The notes under the pieces were generated by a model. The model worked only from the letters and a program-made list of their open reading frames with translations. It was not told the DNA's origin and did not search any database. This document shows positions 2,622 to 10,014 of a stretch of DNA of 64,000 nt, in pieces. The DNA is from Candidatus Micrarchaeota archaeon. Its GTDB lineage: Archaea; Micrarchaeota; Micrarchaeia; Norongarragalinales; SBBD01. Where the stretch lies: positions 196 through 64,195 of the forward strand of contig JBBSVW010000073.1 of the NCBI GenBank assembly GCA_038046605.1. The letters run 5' to 3'. Numbering within the stretch: position 1 is the first letter of the stretch; the number at the start of each line of letters is the position of its first letter. The position numbers and the translations under genes were made by a program.

Positions 2622-2657
2622 GAACTCGGTGGGCAAAATACTAATGCTCTAATCCAA

Positions 2658-3356
2658 TCAGTTTGAGCGCATTCCAACTTTCCTGGCTTGAATAAATCCA
2701 AAAAATGCATCGCTGTGTGCAATTGCCTCGGTTAGCGAATTGAACATAAATCCTTCCTTTTGCAGTTGCCTAAGTCCGCGCTTCGGATCCACCTTGGTTT
2801 TATGGATTGCCAAGGAGCGCTCTACTGAACCCCCCTTGGTGCCTACAATATTCCTTAGAATCCCCCTAAGCCGCATTTGCTTTTGGAATATCCTGTTAAC
2901 GGCTTCTGTTTTAGGAGATTTTGGCTCAACTCTTTTGAGAAGATCTACATTAATGGTCGCTATCCCACTTTTACGTACAGTTGCATTTACCGATTTCCAA
3001 CCTTGCGCCCATCCAAGCTCCCAATTCCGCAGATTGTGATATTCCTGCCTTACTTCCGGAGGCAACATGGAAAAAAAGCCAAGCTCCCTGGCCCGCTTCT
3101 CGATCTGCATTCGCCTAATCGTCCTTTCCGTCCTTTGCTGTTCCATTTGTCTTGTCAATACGCGAGGGTGTATTTCGAAAGTTCTTACGACTACTTCCCC
3201 TTCCCTGCGGCCTGGCCTAATTGCTACTGCTTTTACCCCGGTCGAAGTAAATTGCCCGCGATTACTTCTTTGCATTATCGTAAGCGTCCCGGTCGGGAGT
3301 GTTTCATACTTAGGTTCCCGTTGCCTTTTGCCGCTTCTTGGAATTATCCTACCCAT
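2658..3356 (-). CDS. Hypothetical basic (Arg/Lys-rich) protein, candidate cargo of an integrated element
   Basis: Longest ORF in the interval. Bounded by att-like repeats at 2610 and 3419. No recognisable catalytic motif. Confidence 0.4.
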   Translation of the reverse strand: MGRIIPRSGKRQREPKYETLPTGTLTIMQRSNRGQFTSTGVKAVAIRPGRREGEVVVRTFEIHPRVLTRQMEQQRTERTIRRMQIEKRARELGFFSMLPPEVRQEYHNLRNWELGWAQGWKSVNATVRKSGIATINVDLLKRVEPKSPKTEAVNRIFQKQMRLRGILRNIVGTKGGSVERSLAIHKTKVDPKRGLRQLQKEGFMFNSLTEAIAHSDAFFGFIQARKVGMRSN

Positions 3357-3386
3357 TTCAAAATTAATGGTCGAAAGACTATATAA

Positions 3387-3460
3387 TCCAAACGGAGCAT
3401 TAGCTGGTAAAAAACGGATGCTCCAAACGAGAAACAGTAGCCACGGAACGGATGCTCCTA
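3387..3460. repeat. Cluster of degenerate tRNA-Glu 3'-end copies (att scars)
   Basis: tccaaacggagcat (3387-3400), acggatgctccaaacg (3414-3430) and acggatgctcc (3447-3460) all match the tRNA-Glu 3' end, atgctccaaacgg. Confidence 0.5.
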
Positions 3461-3504
3461 TTTTTGCAATAGGAATATGGGTGAAAAGTTATATTAACTT
3501 GCTC

Positions 3505-4170
3505 TTAAGAAATTTTGGCTTCCTTATCTCCTTTCATATCAAGAAATAGGTCGTTGTTTACGAGAGCCATTAATGCCCCATTCAAGTATAAGTCTTCAGA
3601 ATATTTACTTGAAAAAAGTATTTCTAAAAACTGCTTTTTTGCAAATTTGTGCGAGGCGTCAACTGCTTCGGAAGCCGTACTTCCATTTATTAACGATTTT
3701 GGGATTTGATTCGAAGCCTCCAAAACCGGCCTTGCCATTGGATCCTTTAACGGCCTTGCGATGTATTCGTACTGAAATGGAATTATGAACTCTTTTTTGT
3801 AACCGATGAAAGCTCGCCCCCCTTTCATAATAGATGCTTCGCCTAACTCCTCTAAGCAATTACAGGCTCTTATGAACGTCACCGTATTTGCTAAAGCTTC
3901 TGCCGAAGAGAGTGTAATCACTTCTTCAAGATTATGCCCACAATAGCTATCCTTGCTGCCATGGCCATTAAGAAATACGAAATCGGGTTTTACTGAATTG
4001 AGTCTTCCAATAATATTTTTTTGGGTTACTTCATCTCCCCTAACATCGGTTACATTATAGCCGGAACTTTTCGCTTCTGTAATAATTTCCTCGCTCCAAA
4101 AGAATAAGTAGTTTGTGCCATTGTCATAATTAGGGCGGGCAATCAGTATCTTTTTCATGAATTTAATCAC
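3505..4170 (-). CDS. Compact caspase/hemoglobinase-fold-like putative cysteine peptidase (His-Gly ... Ala-Cys dyad)
   Basis: FVFLNGHGS followed ~35 aa later by FIRACNC. N-terminal KKILIARPNY beta-strand start. 221 aa. Confidence 0.45.
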   Translation of the reverse strand: MIKFMKKILIARPNYDNGTNYLFFWSEEIITEAKSSGYNVTDVRGDEVTQKNIIGRLNSVKPDFVFLNGHGSKDSYCGHNLEEVITLSSAEALANTVTFIRACNCLEELGEASIMKGGRAFIGYKKEFIIPFQYEYIARPLKDPMARPVLEASNQIPKSLINGSTASEAVDASHKFAKKQFLEILFSSKYSEDLYLNGALMALVNNDLFLDMKGDKEAKIS

Positions 4171-4387
4171 TTAGAGTAGCTGAAAGGCGGGGCATCTGTT
4201 TAATGAACTCCAGTTGCATATCCACTATTGCCTTGCCCGTATCGGTTTCCTTCCGTACTTCGCTGATTAATTCCTCCTTTGTATACGTTCCATGACTTCC
4301 AATGGAAAAGCCCACATTAGGGGGCATTGTCTGAAGCCGGGCCACAACTAATTTCTTTATTATTTCAGCATATGCCATCTTTACCAC
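4163..4387 (-). CDS. Small hypothetical protein (74 aa), operon partner of the His-Cys protein
   Basis: 8-nt overlap with the downstream gene. No known motif. Confidence 0.4.
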   Translation of the reverse strand: MVKMAYAEIIKKLVVARLQTMPPNVGFSIGSHGTYTKEELISEVRKETDTGKAIVDMQLEFIKQMPRLSATLSD

Positions 4388-4392
4388 CTGTT

Positions 4393-4626
4393 CTACAATA
4401 AACTTGCCTCTTTTAAGAATTTAAGGATTTTGTTCCCCTTTTCGGTATTATTGCTTATTTCGAGATATGCAGAAAACCAAGAATAGGTTTGCTCATCCAC
4501 AACCGCTATAATTTCCCCCCTCAGGGGCCCAGGTACTGATGCAAATAGCTTCAGGAAGCTGGGTCTGAGAGTTTCAAGATCCTCGCCCATATTATCATCC
4601 ATTCGGGATACTAGAACTCGCAGCAA
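4393..4626 (-). CDS. Small hypothetical protein (77 aa), first gene of three-gene cassette
   Basis: 5-nt spacing to the next gene on the same strand. Acidic N-terminus. Confidence 0.4.
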   Translation of the reverse strand: MLRVLVSRMDDNMGEDLETLRPSFLKLFASVPGPLRGEIIAVVDEQTYSWFSAYLEISNNTEKGNKILKFLKEASLL

Positions 4627-4693
4627 ATATATAATCCAGTAGGCTTTGCTGAGTCTTTAGGCTGCGGAAGGATGTACCGAAATCTCTCTTTTC

Positions 4694-4715
4694 TTCCAAA
4701 CGGATTTACAAACCG
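4694..4715. repeat. Degenerate copy of tRNA-Glu T-arm/3' end (tccaaacggatttacaaaccg)
   Basis: 18/21 identity to 4732-4752 of the adjacent tRNA-Glu. Confidence 0.45.
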
Positions 4716-4728
4716 AAAAGAAAAAAAA

Positions 4729-4886
4729 TGCTCCAAACGGGATTTGAACCCGTGTCGAAGGCTTTTTCCACCAAAAGAAATCATCCTTAATTTCTTTCTT
4801 TTGGACCCCTAGTTTTCTTTCTTTCCAAAAGAAAGAAAAATGGGGTTGAGAAGCCCTTATCCTTGACCGAGCTAGACGATTGGAGC
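4729..4886 (-). tRNA. tRNA-Glu (anticodon CUC) with ~83-nt intron at canonical 37/38 position (approx 4764-4846)
   Basis: Hand-folded. Acceptor GCUCCAA/UUGGAGC, U8, A14, D-stem GUCU/GGAU, anticodon stem AGGGC/GCCUU, loop UUCUCAA, T-arm ACGGG-UUCAAAU-CCCGU, A73. CCA not encoded. Confidence 0.75.
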
Positions 4887-4962
4887 AGCTGATCGGGACT
4901 ATATTCTGGTCCAGCACATTATTAATTATTGGTCGGCAGCTTGAAAATCAGTTTCTTTTGCC

Positions 4963-5247
4963 CTACAAGAGCGCCTGCCCATCCTTCGTGCAGAATTTCG
5001 TGTCCAAAGGATATTCCGTTTTGCATTTCTGGCAAACAAGGAATAGTTTGGTGCCATCATCCGGGCAGAATTTCATGCCAAGGTCAGCAATTTTCTTCTT
5101 GCATTTTGGGCATTGCCTAGGGCCTGGAGCCTTTACGCCTTGTATTCCCTTATTCACCGCCCCGGAAACGCCCGAAGAAATTCCGCCCGCCGCCTTATTG
5201 CTCAAATCCGTTGTGACTCTTCCAACAATACTATCAAATATTCCCAT
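4963..5247 (-). CDS. Double zinc-ribbon domain protein
   Basis: Two CPxC...C..DG motifs (CPKC...FCPDDG; CQKC...FCTKDG). Confidence 0.45.
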   Translation of the reverse strand: MGIFDSIVGRVTTDLSNKAAGGISSGVSGAVNKGIQGVKAPGPRQCPKCKKKIADLGMKFCPDDGTKLFLVCQKCKTEYPLDTKFCTKDGQALL

Positions 5248-5331
5248 ATGACCACCAAAAAGCTACGAATTATGGATTATTAATTATTGGGTTTCTTCTA
5301 CTTTGGGGGCCTATTTCTAAAGTGTTGTGCC

Positions 5332-6180: not shown

Positions 6181-6630
6181 TCAACGGTTGATTGGCGGGG
6201 TTGTAAAATTTCTTTCCCCAAAATCGCCCATGCAAATCAAATCCCTATTGCTAACTATGCATTTTCCCTTCAATTCCCCGCGTGGGTTTTGCACTGCGCA
6301 GGCATCCCCATCTGATTTTCCCTTGCAGGCAGTCAACGCTTCTTGCATCCTTTGCTTTTGCATCTGCGCTCTTTGTTCATCCGTCATGTTCCCAAATGTT
6401 CCGTTCCCAAAGCCGCCAATTCCGCTTCCGTTCCCCCCAAAGCTCCCATTGCGAGGCCCTCCAAATGTCCCATTCCTAAATCCGGAGCCGTTGCGATAGC
6501 CATCTCCTGGCCTTCCCTGATATGGCGCGCCATTCCCTCCGTCCTGATTGCCATTTTCGGTGCATCCCATGAGAAGGAATGACGATGCGATTATTGCCAT
6601 TGTCAAAATCCGAAATGTTATTTTTTTCAC
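6181..6630 (-). CDS. Gly/Asn-rich lipoprotein
   Basis: Signal peptide with LLMGC lipobox. Repetitive GNGS/GFGNGT low-complexity region. Cys-containing C-terminal domain. Confidence 0.5.
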   Translation of the reverse strand: MKKITFRILTMAIIASSFLLMGCTENGNQDGGNGAPYQGRPGDGYRNGSGFRNGTFGGPRNGSFGGNGSGIGGFGNGTFGNMTDEQRAQMQKQRMQEALTACKGKSDGDACAVQNPRGELKGKCIVSNRDLICMGDFGERNFTTPPINR

Positions 6631-6695
6631 TCTTAATCACCCAATAAATTCTCCTAAATAAACGATTTTTTCAAATTTAGATTCAATTGGGGTGG

Positions 6696-7967
6696 TCATT
6701 CGTAGCGCAATGACTCTACGGGCTGCAATTTCGCAGCATTCCTTGCCGGCAATGCGCCGGATACTATGCCAACGACTCCCGAAAATGCCAGCGCCATAAG
6801 CGCCAGATCAAACGTGATCAGGCTGGGCACTGAAAATGCCGCCAAAATTTGTGAAACAATTAGGCTGAGGATGATTCCAAGCATTCCGCCCGCAAGCCCT
6901 ATGATTGCAGCTTCCGTCAGGAACATTGCCGTCACCTCCGAATCCTTCATCCCAAGCGATTTCAAAATCCCAATTTCCCTAGTTCGCTCAAGCACGCTCA
7001 TGAACATGGTGTTTGCAACCCCAATTGCGCCGACCAGAAGGGAAATTGCGGCAATCCCCCCAAGGAATAGTGCCAGCATGTTTGTCACATCGGAAACCGT
7101 GGACTGCAGGAACGAAGCCGTTGTGATTGTGAAATCCGCCTTGTCGGCAGTGAGGCGATGCAACTCCAAAAGCTTAGTTTCTATTTTGGCTGCCACCTCA
7201 TCGGGGGATTTTCCAGGCGCTACCTTTATGAAAATCTGGTTTGCATTTTCCGATTCGTTAAGGATGGCTTTGGCAACCTCGATTGGAACATAAATAACAT
7301 TATCCGATGTAGTAAGGGAACCCGATGTTTGGTTGAGAAGGCCAACAACCCTAAGGGAATAATCGCCAATTTTAATTTGCCTATTTAGGAGCTCCTCCCC
7401 CCCGAACGTTGCGGAATGGACACGATAGCCAAGCACGACTGAAAAGCGGTCATTTGGGTTTAGCAGTTTCCCATCTAATAATGTGGTCGTGCTAATTTGG
7501 TTGAAAGCAGAAGGGTCAATCCCAACAATTTGAACCGTGGAGTTCCTGCCCTTGAATGATGCGCGCTTGCTTGCCTGTAACCTTGCATCAACGGCAATTA
7601 CCCCCTCTATCAATTTCAAATCCTGCGCTTCTGAAAATTTTAATTCATTAGTTCCCTGGTTGATCCTTCCCCCAAAAGTTCCCCCACCACCCGGAGGGCC
7701 GCCTCCACCAAAGCCTCCGCCGCCCCCGCCAATGAATACTCCCCCTCCCTCCCTAATCGAGCGGCTTGCTCCGGGGGTGATTTGAATCACATCATTCCCA
7801 AGCTGGTTAAGCCGAGAGCTCACCTGCTGATTTACTCCATTTGCAAGTGAGATCAGGATAATGATTGAAGCAACCGCTATCACTATCCCAAGGACCGTAA
7901 GCATTGCCCTAAGCTTCCTTCCCCTCATATTGTTAACTGACAAAAACGCAACATCCTTGTACTTCAT
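6696..7967 (-). CDS. ABC transporter permease, MacB/FtsX family, with poly-Gly insert in extracytoplasmic domain
   Basis: N-terminal TM, large extracytoplasmic domain, C-terminal FtsX-like 3-TM region. 4-nt overlap with the upstream COG1361 gene. Confidence 0.8.
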   Translation of the reverse strand: MKYKDVAFLSVNNMRGRKLRAMLTVLGIVIAVASIIILISLANGVNQQVSSRLNQLGNDVIQITPGASRSIREGGGVFIGGGGGGFGGGGPPGGGGTFGGRINQGTNELKFSEAQDLKLIEGVIAVDARLQASKRASFKGRNSTVQIVGIDPSAFNQISTTTLLDGKLLNPNDRFSVVLGYRVHSATFGGEELLNRQIKIGDYSLRVVGLLNQTSGSLTTSDNVIYVPIEVAKAILNESENANQIFIKVAPGKSPDEVAAKIETKLLELHRLTADKADFTITTASFLQSTVSDVTNMLALFLGGIAAISLLVGAIGVANTMFMSVLERTREIGILKSLGMKDSEVTAMFLTEAAIIGLAGGMLGIILSLIVSQILAAFSVPSLITFDLALMALAFSGVVGIVSGALPARNAAKLQPVESLRYE

Positions 7968-9244
7968 TTATGGCGCCTCCTATACCATTTGTAGCCAAAG
8001 AACGCCGCAACAAGCAGAATCAAAATTCCTCCAATCACAATTGGCTGAATTCCCAATATTGTGAATTGCTGCGAGTTCCTTCCAAATCTTTGGTTGGTTC
8101 CGGTTATCCCATCTGCGGTATTGCCCGTTCCGATGCCGCCAAAACCTGCAACTGCCCCAATCTCGAATTCCTTTTGCTGTATATGTTCGGCATTCAATGA
8201 ATCCTTGTAGGACACTTTGATGTAAACTTTCCCTGCTCCTTGTGTGCCGCTCATTGGCAACAAGCTAAGGGACATGCTAACCGAATCGTCCAAATTTAGC
8301 GTGCCAAAGAACTTTTCGGATGCGCCGCTAAACCTGAAATCATCCGATTCCGCGGAAATAAAAACGCCCCGAACCGGTGTATCGCCCACATTTGCAACGC
8401 CTACAACCAGGAGCTGGCCTGTGGCGCTCGTTGTAGTGGAGCTTGTATCCGCGCTCACAAGAAGGTCCGTATTGGATTCAACCTTGATGCCAAAAGTTTG
8501 CGTGATTGTCGGCTGGGCGACCTTGTCGACCTTATAGGTGATGAGAAGTGTTATGGGGTAATAGCCCGGGTCTGCGGATGGGCTTATTCCCGCATCAAAC
8601 TCAATAGTCTTTTCCGAATCAAGGGCTATTCCCTCAATATATTTCCGGTCAGAGCCTATTGGCAAAAGGACATTTCCCGGGGTGTATTGCATCTGCACGA
8701 TCACATCCTGCGCATCCCTTGCGCCCACGTTCCTTATTGTGATTGGAAGTTTTACGGTATCCCCGGAAAACACCAACAAATTCCCCCCCACATTGGCAAT
8801 GAGCGCATTTGATAATTGGGGCTCATAAATTGTCAGCTGTATCTGCGCCACCTGCGCCTGCCCCCCTGATGCACCTTGCGCATAAACATAAATATCATAG
8901 TTTCCAGGCTTTGTGGCATTTTGAACCTTGAAATTGACAGAAATTCCTTTCTTTGCACCTACTGCCAAATCATCCAGGAAATAATTGCTTGTCTGTGAGA
9001 GGAATGGAACTAGCACTTTTGCTTCCACATTCCCAATAGCCTCGCCTCCCACGTTTTGAAGATTGAATTGCAGCCTAACCTCATCGCCTGGGTAAATCCT
9101 GTCGGGAGTTTGGATAAGATCGCTAATGGTGATGCCCGATTCGTAGGTTCCGGCAATTCTTGTGACATTGAATGTTGCCGCATTAGCATTTATTGCAAAT
9201 AACAGCACGATCAATCCCAGCATTCCAATTATTCCTCTTACCAT
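7964..9244 (-). CDS. COG1361-type S-layer-domain/CARDB-like exported protein with C-terminal TM anchor
   Basis: Signal peptide, beta-rich repeats, C-terminal hydrophobic segment plus RRRHK. Co-operonic with the ABC ATPase and permease. Confidence 0.6.
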   Translation of the reverse strand: MVRGIIGMLGLIVLLFAINANAATFNVTRIAGTYESGITISDLIQTPDRIYPGDEVRLQFNLQNVGGEAIGNVEAKVLVPFLSQTSNYFLDDLAVGAKKGISVNFKVQNATKPGNYDIYVYAQGASGGQAQVAQIQLTIYEPQLSNALIANVGGNLLVFSGDTVKLPITIRNVGARDAQDVIVQMQYTPGNVLLPIGSDRKYIEGIALDSEKTIEFDAGISPSADPGYYPITLLITYKVDKVAQPTITQTFGIKVESNTDLLVSADTSSTTTSATGQLLVVGVANVGDTPVRGVFISAESDDFRFSGASEKFFGTLNLDDSVSMSLSLLPMSGTQGAGKVYIKVSYKDSLNAEHIQQKEFEIGAVAGFGGIGTGNTADGITGTNQRFGRNSQQFTILGIQPIVIGGILILLVAAFFGYKWYRRRHK

Positions 9245-9258
9245 GCCTCAACACCTCG

Positions 9259-10014
9259 TCATTTCAATTTCAAGTTTTTTTCCTTAATGGCTATTGGTTT
9301 ATCCTCATACTCTATTCTTCCATCACGCAAATGGATGATGCGCTTGCTATACTGCGCAACAGCCGGTTCGTGCGTGACCAGGACTATTGTTGCCCCCCCT
9401 TTTCCAAGTTCCGATATAAGCTCCATTACCTCCTCCCCGGATTTCGAATCCAAATTGCCTGTTGGCTCATCGGCAAGGAGGAAGGAGGGGTTGTTTGCAA
9501 GCGCGCGCGCAATTGCCACTCTTTGCTTTTCGCCTCCGCTAAGTTCCCTTGGCCGATGGTTTTTCCTATCGGTCAAGCCTACTTTTTCCAATAGCTTTAG
9601 GGCGCGTTCCCGCCTCTGGTCGGAATCCATCTCATTGATAGCCATTGCAATTTCCACATTCTCAAGCGCGCTCAGGTTGGATAGCAAATTGAACGCCTGG
9701 AAAACGAACCCTATTTTTCTGCACCGAACCTCCGCCAGGCGGTTTGCGCCAAAAGTGGAAATATCCTCCCCATCTATGAAAACCTTCCCAAACGTTGGGA
9801 GGTCAAGGCATCCTATCATCTGAAGCATCGTGCTTTTTCCGCTTCCGGATGGGCCCATGATGGAAACGAATTCGCCCTTCCTAACCGTGAAGGATATTTC
9901 ATTCAGGACGCGCAGCTTCCGGTCCCCGATAGGGTATTCCTTCGAAACCTTTTCAAATTTGATTACCTCTTTTTCTGCCGCTGCTACCAACTTTACCCCT
10001 TCTTTTAATTTCAA
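9259..10014 (-). CDS. ABC transporter ATP-binding protein (MacB/LolD-type)
   Basis: Walker A GPSGSGKST, signature LSGGEKQRVAIARAL, Walker B LLADEPTGNLD. Confidence 0.9.
   Translation of the reverse strand: MKLKEGVKLVAAAEKEVIKFEKVSKEYPIGDRKLRVLNEISFTVRKGEFVSIMGPSGSGKSTMLQMIGCLDLPTFGKVFIDGEDISTFGANRLAEVRCRKIGFVFQAFNLLSNLSALENVEIAMAINEMDSDQRRERALKLLEKVGLTDRKNHRPRELSGGEKQRVAIARALANNPSFLLADEPTGNLDSKSGEEVMELISELGKGGATIVLVTHEPAVAQYSKRIIHLRDGRIEYEDKPIAIKEKNLKLK

Follow-up and report, generated by a model that had tools for sequence, protein, structure and literature searches.

The 64-kb stretch of DNA analysed here, called the window below and used for all coordinates, belongs to a Candidatus Micrarchaeota metagenome-assembled genome (MAG) and carries, within positions 3505-4626, three closely packed genes of the same direction on the minus strand, which we designate A, B and C. 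These genes constitute a self-contained, horizontally acquired and promoter-bearing unit that occurs in unrelated genomic contexts and is apparently mobile. A reading of this DNA made from the letters and a list of open reading frames (ORFs), hereafter the sequence-only reading, had described a 5-nt gap between the longest ORFs of A and B and an 8-nt overlap between those of B and C, and the coordinates agree with it exactly. Gene A, the first small partner, spans 4393-4626 (77 amino acids, aa, from a TTG at 4626, stop codon at 4393-4395); gene B, the second, spans 4163-4387 (74 aa, from a GTG at 4387, stop at 4163-4165); and gene C, encoding a minimal clan-CD cysteine peptidase-like protein, spans 3505-4170 (221 aa, from a GTG at 4170, stop at 3505-3507). 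Judging from the sequence, the true starts are likely to be the ATG codons at 4602 for A (69 aa), 4378 for B (71 aa) and 4158 for C (217 aa), which leave gaps of 14 nt (A-B) and 4 nt (B-C), so that the packing remains tight. NCBI calls B from ATG 4378 (P0173, 71 aa, 100% identical) and annotates C as a hypothetical protein of 217 aa from ATG 4158 (P0001), and GGTGGT lies 6 nt 5' of the B start. A TATA-box-like element read from the sequence, TTATATATTT (4625-4634, minus strand), stands ~28 nt 5' of ATG 4602 and is likely the promoter of a leaderless A-B-C transcript. Since the TTG at 4626 falls within this box, and given archaeal promoter geometry, A is probably a 69-aa protein made from such a transcript. 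A scan of the region for sigma-70 promoters and terminators was uninformative, the host being archaeal.

The predicted structure places protein C in clan CD (caspase-hemoglobinase fold), nearest in structure to gingipains and CHAT proteases. The AlphaFold2 model, built from an alignment of 23 homologs, reached a predicted local distance difference test score (pLDDT) of 96.6 and a predicted template modelling score of 0.93. When it was compared with the PDB using Foldseek, the top matches were a SAVED-CHAT protein (8tl0, E-value 9.5e-8), the gingipain RgpB (1cvr, 4ief), caspase-4, Kgp, C11 proteases and MALT1. In the numbering of the 217-aa form, His66-Gly67 come directly after strand 60-64, the third of the fold, and Cys99 directly after strand 93-97, the fourth. 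The codon of His66, a catalytic-type residue in the motif FLNGHG, lies at 3961-3963 and that of Cys99, likewise of catalytic type and in the motif (A/S)RAC, at 3862-3864, both on the minus strand. Two marks of clan-CD membership were thus found in C, the fold in the predicted structure and the conserved placement of His-Gly and Cys in 246 sequences. The sequence-only reading had pointed out FVFLNGHGS and FIRACNC in the 221-aa ORF, had suspected a caspase-hemoglobinase fold in an unusually short polypeptide and had proposed fold prediction against caspases, gingipains and CHAT proteins as a check. The two motifs were confirmed, with a His66-Cys99 spacing of 33 residues, the prediction and the Foldseek matches returned the protease fold, and a length of ~215 aa is indeed short for the clan. 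C is a cytoplasmic protein close to the minimal form of the fold, and it lacks a signal peptide, as its first strand begins at residue 3.

Word-indexed searching yielded 24 homologs of C with E-values down to 1e-72, whereas an exhaustive search gave 2714 cluster representatives (50% identity) at E ≤ 1e-3, with 396 at E ≤ 1e-30; the best 150 representatives are nearly all stand-alone proteins of ~205-225 aa. Residues F62, N64, G65, H66, G67, C99, G106, G119, Y120, P136, D139 and G210 are invariant in the 23-homolog alignment. Among 246 members, His66 and Cys99 are conserved in 100%, residue 12 is always Asp or Glu, and Asp139 (99%), Asn64 (98%) and Tyr120 (98%) vary very rarely. Judging by these alignments, C is under selection for catalytic competence and, because the His-Gly...Cys dyad is invariant, it is almost certainly an active enzyme. 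Searches of C against Pfam, NCBIfam and PADLOC at E ≤ 1 returned no peptidase family, including Peptidase_C25, CHAT (PF12770), Peptidase_C14, C13 and C11. A PHROGs search of C, A and B produced sub-threshold noise at most, sequence comparison of C with the PDB, by single sequence and by profile, gave nothing significant, and identity with gingipains is ~15% over the structural alignment. Since the sequence models of all the named families (C25, CHAT, C14, C13 and C11) fail to recognise it, C represents a new family inside clan CD. No paper on the A-B-C family was found in the literature, nor any name for it in databases.

The resemblance to the gingipains RgpB and Kgp (MEROPS C25, clan CD) lies in the His-Gly...Cys dyad placed after adjacent strands, and the 33-residue spacing equals what we take to be the distance between His211 and Cys244 of RgpB. 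An acidic upstream residue of C could also serve as the gingipain S1 Asp. By analogy with these enzymes, and because residue 12 is always acidic, C may prefer a basic P1 residue, with residue 12 and Asp139 as candidates for the S1 pocket. Gingipains, however, are secreted proteins in which a catalytic domain of ~430 aa is combined with Ig-like domains, a prodomain of ~200 aa and a type IX secretion tail, and they have no A- or B-type partners, whereas C has two, consists of ~215 aa without a signal peptide and ends in a helical C-terminal third. The CHAT proteases of defence systems, namely SAVED-CHAT of type III CRISPR and of cyclic-oligonucleotide-based antiphage signalling systems (CBASS), Csx29 (TPR-CHAT) of Craspase, and DdvA, resemble C in being prokaryotic and cytoplasmic. 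They are moreover conflict-related, are controlled by partners and act on small proteins encoded alongside, features that C would share. In contrast to C, which is a bare catalytic domain, they have lengths of 470-900 aa, include a sensor or adaptor domain (SAVED, TPR, transmembrane) and are activated by cyclic oligoadenylate or target RNA. No CRISPR or CBASS genes are linked to C. Orthocaspases, metacaspases and caspases (MEROPS C14) match C less well than C25 or CHAT proteins do, and C shows neither their p20/p10 organisation nor an inter-subunit linker.

The two small proteins, ~65 aa (A) and ~75 aa (B) across the family, each have dozens of homologs, always adjoining a C gene. The sequence-only reading had seen no recognisable motifs in them, which holds only with respect to known families: searches of A and B against Pfam, NCBIfam, PADLOC and PHROGs gave no family and sub-threshold noise at most, and comparison with the PDB by sequence and by profile gave nothing significant. 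Each has strongly conserved motifs of its own. The consensus of A is FLKvYANLPLglRxEIvaVlDdePiTWNvAylEIxNDTxlGkkILeKLekLgII, with the core FLKxYANLPxxxRxEI...TW...E..NDT..G..IL, and that of B is KkLViARLktlPxdxkISIGsxGefTkeELIeHVekgDEiGKkIiemQlxfLrxLkxG, with the core LVxARLxxxP...ISIG..G..T..EL..HV...DE.GK.I. Furthermore, the two appear to be distant paralogs. Alignment of their profiles by hhalign matched the same 42 columns at an E-value of 9.5e-4, though with a probability of 22% only, and MAFFT stacked the A and B families onto each other every time. Searching with the A and B profiles joined end to end brought up a natural fusion of 131 aa from an ENA metagenome contig (P0177), with A at residues 4-58 and B at 69-128, from which it follows that A and B probably form a heterodimer. 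An AlphaFold2 model of the fusion, computed with a B-only alignment, has a pLDDT of 83-94 in the B half and 58-68, that is low confidence, in the A half; in this prediction, and subject to that limit for A, the layout helix, beta-hairpin, helix, helix occurs twice. The median isoelectric points are mildly acidic for A (5.8) and B (5.4) and mildly basic for C (8.3).

To follow the trio in other genomes, 185,579 species genomes were scanned, one per species, and 125 loci were confirmed, 80 of which were fetched. Hosts of the cassette belong to the Micr-, Aenigm-, Woese- and Nanoarchaeota (DPANN archaea), to many lineages of the Candidate Phyla Radiation (CPR, Patescibacteria) and, twice, to the Bacteroidota. 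With uncontaminated A-only and B-only profiles, genes in the order A-B-C were found on the same strand and directly upstream of C in 75 of the 76 loci having at least 480 nt of upstream DNA, and in the sole exception (L071) B is present and A was undetected. The check proposed by the sequence-only reading, co-occurrence of the three genes elsewhere, therefore came out in its favour. Clustering of the neighbours in 82 neighbourhoods likewise placed C in 82, A in 75, B in 74 and the next family in 7. A and B most often overlap by 4 nt (27 of 68 loci), and B and C most often by 8 nt (19 loci) or 4 nt (12 loci). The pairwise distance matrices of A, B and C correlate (r 0.63-0.72), and A and B are, by this sequence measure, co-evolving with C. 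Bacterial cassettes have an extended -10 element, TGnTATAAT, 10-30 nt 5' of the A start codon, which indicates that the unit carries its own promoter. The cassette thus consists of small, co-directional, coupled genes with a promoter of their own in variable contexts, the organisation that characterises type II and tripartite toxin-antitoxin modules.

A complete A-B-C set is present in the cultured Nemorincola caseinilytica JCM 32105 (Bacteroidota; L080:5592-6672, NZ_BAABFA010000005.1), and the second Bacteroidota cassette is in a Bacteroidia MAG (L084). In a neighbour-joining tree of C, archaeal and CPR clades are mostly separate, with one archaeon-labelled sequence and both Bacteroidota sequences nested in the CPR clade. 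The tree suggests long residence with occasional cross-domain or cross-phylum transfer, although mis-binning may account for some placements, and the nested position of L080 and L084 suggests transfer out of CPR to Bacteroidota.

Evidence of insertion was found first of all in the window. The A-proximal end of the cassette adjoins the 3' end of an intron-containing tRNA gene (4729-4886, minus strand; intron of 85 nt; Rfam RF00005, 40.2 bits). No other tRNA was detected in the 64 kb; ARAGORN missed this one, and from a hand reading of its anticodon loop it is, with uncertainty, tRNA-Glu(CUC). The sequence CGTTTGGAGCAT, which comprises the last 11 nt of the tRNA 3' acceptor end plus one base (copy 1, 4728-4739), recurs 75 nt downstream of the C stop codon, where it marks the distal cassette boundary (copy 2, 3418-3429), and once more at 2611-2622 (copy 3), where it closes a second segment, 2623-3417. 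These three minus-strand copies are the only exact ones in the 64 kb, a count that was not attained in any of 100 shuffles. Copies 1 and 2 are each followed, after ~25 nt, by a second short repeat, CCGTTTGGA. The cassette unit (3430-4727, 1298 nt) has a guanine-plus-cytosine (GC) fraction of 0.401, the minimum among equal-length segments of the window (mean 0.472, standard deviation 0.017) and ~4 standard deviations below the mean. Alone between copies 2 and 3 stands an ORF for a very basic, Arg-rich protein of 232 aa (2658-3356, minus strand) for which Pfam, NCBIfam, PADLOC, PHROGs and IMG/VR gave no match; it was also compared with the 242-aa gene that follows C in the closest relative (L001), and the two are unrelated. 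The cassette and the segment with the 232-aa ORF are thus each bracketed by att-like repeats. On the plus strand, a VapBC-like toxin-antitoxin pair (1962-2607), in which an 83-aa ORF overlaps the gene of a 136-aa PIN_2 protein (E-value 6.7e-20), ends 4 nt before copy 3, and its position beside the third repeat makes the tRNA-proximal region a small islet of accessory or selfish genes. The sequence-only reading had placed the genes on an integrated segment, and the repeats of the tRNA 3' end at the flanks, the GC minimum and the variable neighbourhood across loci bear this out.

Traces of the same kind were found in other loci when the 450 nt upstream of A and the 450 nt downstream of C were compared by local alignment. 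Imperfect direct repeats bracket the cassette in nine loci, with lengths of 75 nt (L017), 57 nt (L055), 64 nt (L063), 26 nt (L033), 38 nt (L032), 24 nt (L022), 33 nt (L066), 40 nt (L062) and 83 nt (L087); the repeat-to-repeat distance is 1143-1351 nt, and only A, B and C lie between the repeats. The repeats vary by locus and are copies of the target sequence, which is the 3' end of a tRNA-Gln gene in L033, the end of a tRNA-Met gene with its terminator in L062, the 3' ends of protein genes in L022 and L055, the 5' ends of protein genes in L017 and L063, and a terminator, promoter and gene start in L087. Flanking repeats were detected at 7 of 60 cassettes as against 1 of 260 control segments of equal size, taken from these loci at a shift of 2.5-4.5 kb (Fisher p = 4e-5). 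The sole significant shifted control, ~2.5 kb upstream of the cassette in L054 (score 27), may be another small insertion. We also considered whether a duplicate of the tRNA end lies opposite every adjacent tRNA; it was seen only in L033, L062 and the window, and not in L031, L048, L051 or L054. Family searches with Pfam, PADLOC and NCBIfam found no integrase, transposase or recombinase among A, B and C, and no motif shared by the element ends was seen by eye. Direct repeats of the target sequence around a unit devoid of mobility genes are one mark of insertion with long target duplication, and the loci display this mark.

The unit also decays asymmetrically. Among the 76 C-anchored loci none is without B and one is without A. 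Approached instead through A- or B-type proteins, eight independent contexts comprised five with an intact C, one cut by the contig end and two in which C lacks its catalytic part, so that the catalytic part was lost, with A and B intact, in 2 of 7 informative B-anchored lineages. In one of them (L101:2731-3777) only residues 3-63 of C remain, fused to an unrelated sequence of 285 aa. In the other (L102:2724-2975, L103:1999-2208) only residues 129-212 are left, with a gene for a 1565-aa DUF4011/AAA_11/AAA_12/MTES_1575 helicase-nuclease downstream of this remnant; a gene resembling it lies upstream of the intact cassette in L106. Such asymmetry is the pattern expected if C were harmful without A-B and A-B harmless without C. 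Annotated neighbours are often defence or mobile genes, such as the PIN toxin-antitoxin pair of the window, DpnI, an MmeI-like restriction-modification enzyme, DUF4011/AAA_11/MTES_1575 helicase-nucleases and Prim-Pol; across loci there is no consistent partner.

Two further features of the window were recorded. The exact 15-nt direct repeat ATTATTAATTATTGG (minus-strand reading CCAATAATTAATAAT) occurs at 4918-4932 and 5276-5290, where the copies flank a gene for a 94-aa double zinc-ribbon protein (4963-5247, minus strand); the repeat may represent a TATA-type promoter that was duplicated and serves the tRNA as well as the zinc-ribbon gene. The products of an apparent operon at 6181-10014 (minus strand), unrelated to the cassette, are a 149-aa secreted protein rich in Gly, a 423-aa permease of the MacB/FtsX type with a poly-Gly insert, a 426-aa surface protein anchored in the membrane at its C terminus, and a 251-aa ABC ATPase.

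We tentatively interpret A-B-C as a conflict module of the tripartite toxin-antitoxin or addiction type whose effector is a protease, a reading to which we give somewhat less than an even chance. A defence or addiction-type module, with the small proteins as a putative inhibitor/substrate pair or adaptor, had been suggested in the sequence-only reading; the addiction type is favoured indirectly by the asymmetric decay, by an insertion with target duplication like that of restriction-modification complexes, and by the defence and mobile neighbours. Tripartite toxin-antitoxin modules are exemplified by omega-epsilon-zeta and PaaR-PaaA-ParE. With these the cassette shares two small genes upstream of a larger effector gene, a coupled operon with its own promoter, acidic small proteins beside a more basic effector, a variable context and an effector gene that may decay with the small genes left intact; it differs in showing no sequence or detected fold similarity to them and in not having been found on plasmids or phages. 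The toxins of the known tripartite modules are, to our knowledge, kinases, gyrase poisons or RNases, not clan-CD proteases. In such a module, C would be the effector and would cleave cellular or invader proteins after a basic residue. The A-B heterodimer would bind C and hold it inactive, and would probably autoregulate the promoter, until loss or titration of A-B set the protease free. Spread would occur by DNA uptake, a capacity ascribed to CPR bacteria, and insertion with a long duplication of the target.

Restriction-modification complexes provide the precedent for this mode of spread, as they insert with long, variable target duplications and without a recombinase, often at gene 3' ends or tRNAs (PMC2853133). 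They are selfish addiction modules of deviant GC and occur mostly in naturally competent species (PMC2853133). The A-B-C cassette resembles them in its small size, in the lack of a recombinase, in its long, variable and imperfect target-derived repeats, in targets at gene 3' ends or tRNA genes and in aberrant GC. There is no homology between the two. The cargo differs, being a protease trio instead of a nuclease and a methylase, and so does the length of the repeats, which is 12-83 nt for A-B-C as compared with 46 to >400 bp for restriction-modification complexes (Furuta, Abe and Kobayashi 2010, PMC2853133).

Several observations weigh against the addiction-type interpretation. Toxicity, proteolysis and binding among A, B and C are predictions, and PADLOC-DB 2.0, searched at E ≤ 1, contains no defence or toxin-antitoxin model matching A, B, C or the 232-aa ORF. 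No relatives were found in IMG/VR, INPHARED (50,697 phage records) or PLSDB (72,556 plasmid records), which is unusual for addiction modules. The decay asymmetry comes from two lineages, a small sample. The repeat in the window measures only 12 nt, two pattern scans of metagenome contigs did not find an empty site for L087, and look-ups of exact proteins returned the same context in all samples and one context per protein, so that recent movement was not demonstrated. Moreover, A and B are conserved over their full length at 30-45% identity across domains, as highly as C, which would also fit a housekeeping complex.

A different proposal, which we regard as fairly unlikely, is an accessory, non-selfish function: ultra-small episymbionts would employ A-B-C as a stable protease complex or for maturation, with A and B as chaperone-like subunits or as substrates that are processed or ligated. 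Clan CD does include transpeptidases such as GPI8, legumain-type ligases and PorU; the full-length conservation of A and B and their co-evolution with C would suit such a complex, and so would the absence from phage, plasmid and viral collections (INPHARED, PLSDB, IMG/VR) and a CPR/DPANN-centred distribution in mostly domain-specific clades, which suggests long residence. A function of this kind is, however, hard to reconcile with the patchy occurrence of the cassette (125 confirmed loci in 185,579 species genomes), with the GC anomaly and flanking target duplications, and with two lineages that lost the catalytic part of C while A and B stayed intact. Nor does the cassette have a conserved neighbourhood, companion genes, a signal peptide, a modifying enzyme or an exporter. 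We consider about equally unlikely a regulated-proteolysis switch, in which A and B would be small helix-turn-helix (HTH) or winged HTH (wHTH)-like regulators or anti-regulators, one of which C would cleave in response to a signal, as in CalpL-CalpT-CalpS and Csx29-Csx30-RpoE, in both of which a transcription factor is released by a protease. The structural relatives of C include the Craspase TPR-CHAT protein and the CHAT anti-sigma factor DdvA (7y83, 7zoq, 8rot), the B profile weakly resembles region 4 of sigma-E (LPEDLR... stretch, E-value 0.74), and the scattered sub-threshold Pfam matches of A and B are mostly to HTH or wHTH families (HTH_41, GMT-wHTH, MksE, HTH_6 and MCM4_WHD). In addition, Arg36 of A and Arg17 of B, each at least 90% conserved, are possible P1 sites for a basic-specific protease. 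Yet C has no sensor domain and no conserved sensor nearby, A and B are mildly acidic, and the module occurs in archaea as well as in bacteria, which do not share a sigma-type transcription machinery.

The insertion evidence can also be taken further than the addiction-type interpretation takes it. An autonomous miniature integrative element of ~1.25 kb that encodes its own insertion machinery, with C or A-B acting on DNA or recruiting host repair to produce the long target duplication, would account for repeats that bracket A, B and C alone in ten loci of distant lineages, for the constant size of the unit (1.14-1.35 kb), for the absence of an integrase or transposase inside it and for targets that are typical integration sites (3' ends of tRNA-Glu-like, tRNA-Gln and tRNA-Met genes, and gene ends). 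We nevertheless deem it very improbable: no clan-CD protein is known to process DNA, and C superposes, with a protease dyad, on proteases. The ends share no conserved motif or inverted repeat by eye, the repeats range between 12 and 83 nt in length, as a transposase footprint does not, no sign of multiple copies or recent movement was seen, and restriction-modification complexes leave the same footprint without encoding a recombinase. A combination of the two ideas, in which a protease-based addiction cassette would also promote its own insertion at tRNA and gene ends without a known recombinase, seems to us improbable as well, if less so than the autonomous element.

The cassette brings to light a large undescribed protein family, of at least 2714 clusters at 50% identity, for which Pfam, NCBIfam and PADLOC have no model. 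The fold that C exhibits in near-minimal form drives, from bacteria to animals, both programmed cell death and immune signalling, and the two tiny obligate partners of C offer a simple system in which to study how clan-CD proteases are restrained and released; the copies in Nemorincola caseinilytica, a cultured host, provide an experimental entry point. Furthermore, the cassette is concentrated in CPR and DPANN, where conflict and addiction systems are almost unknown, and its recombinase-free target duplication (12-83 nt) extends a phenomenon of restriction-modification complexes to other cargo and, in the window, to an archaeon. If A-B-C were indeed a self-inserting addiction cassette, it would be among the smallest self-propagating gene units known and would provide a mechanistic handle on how restriction-modification-like complexes insert with long target duplications.

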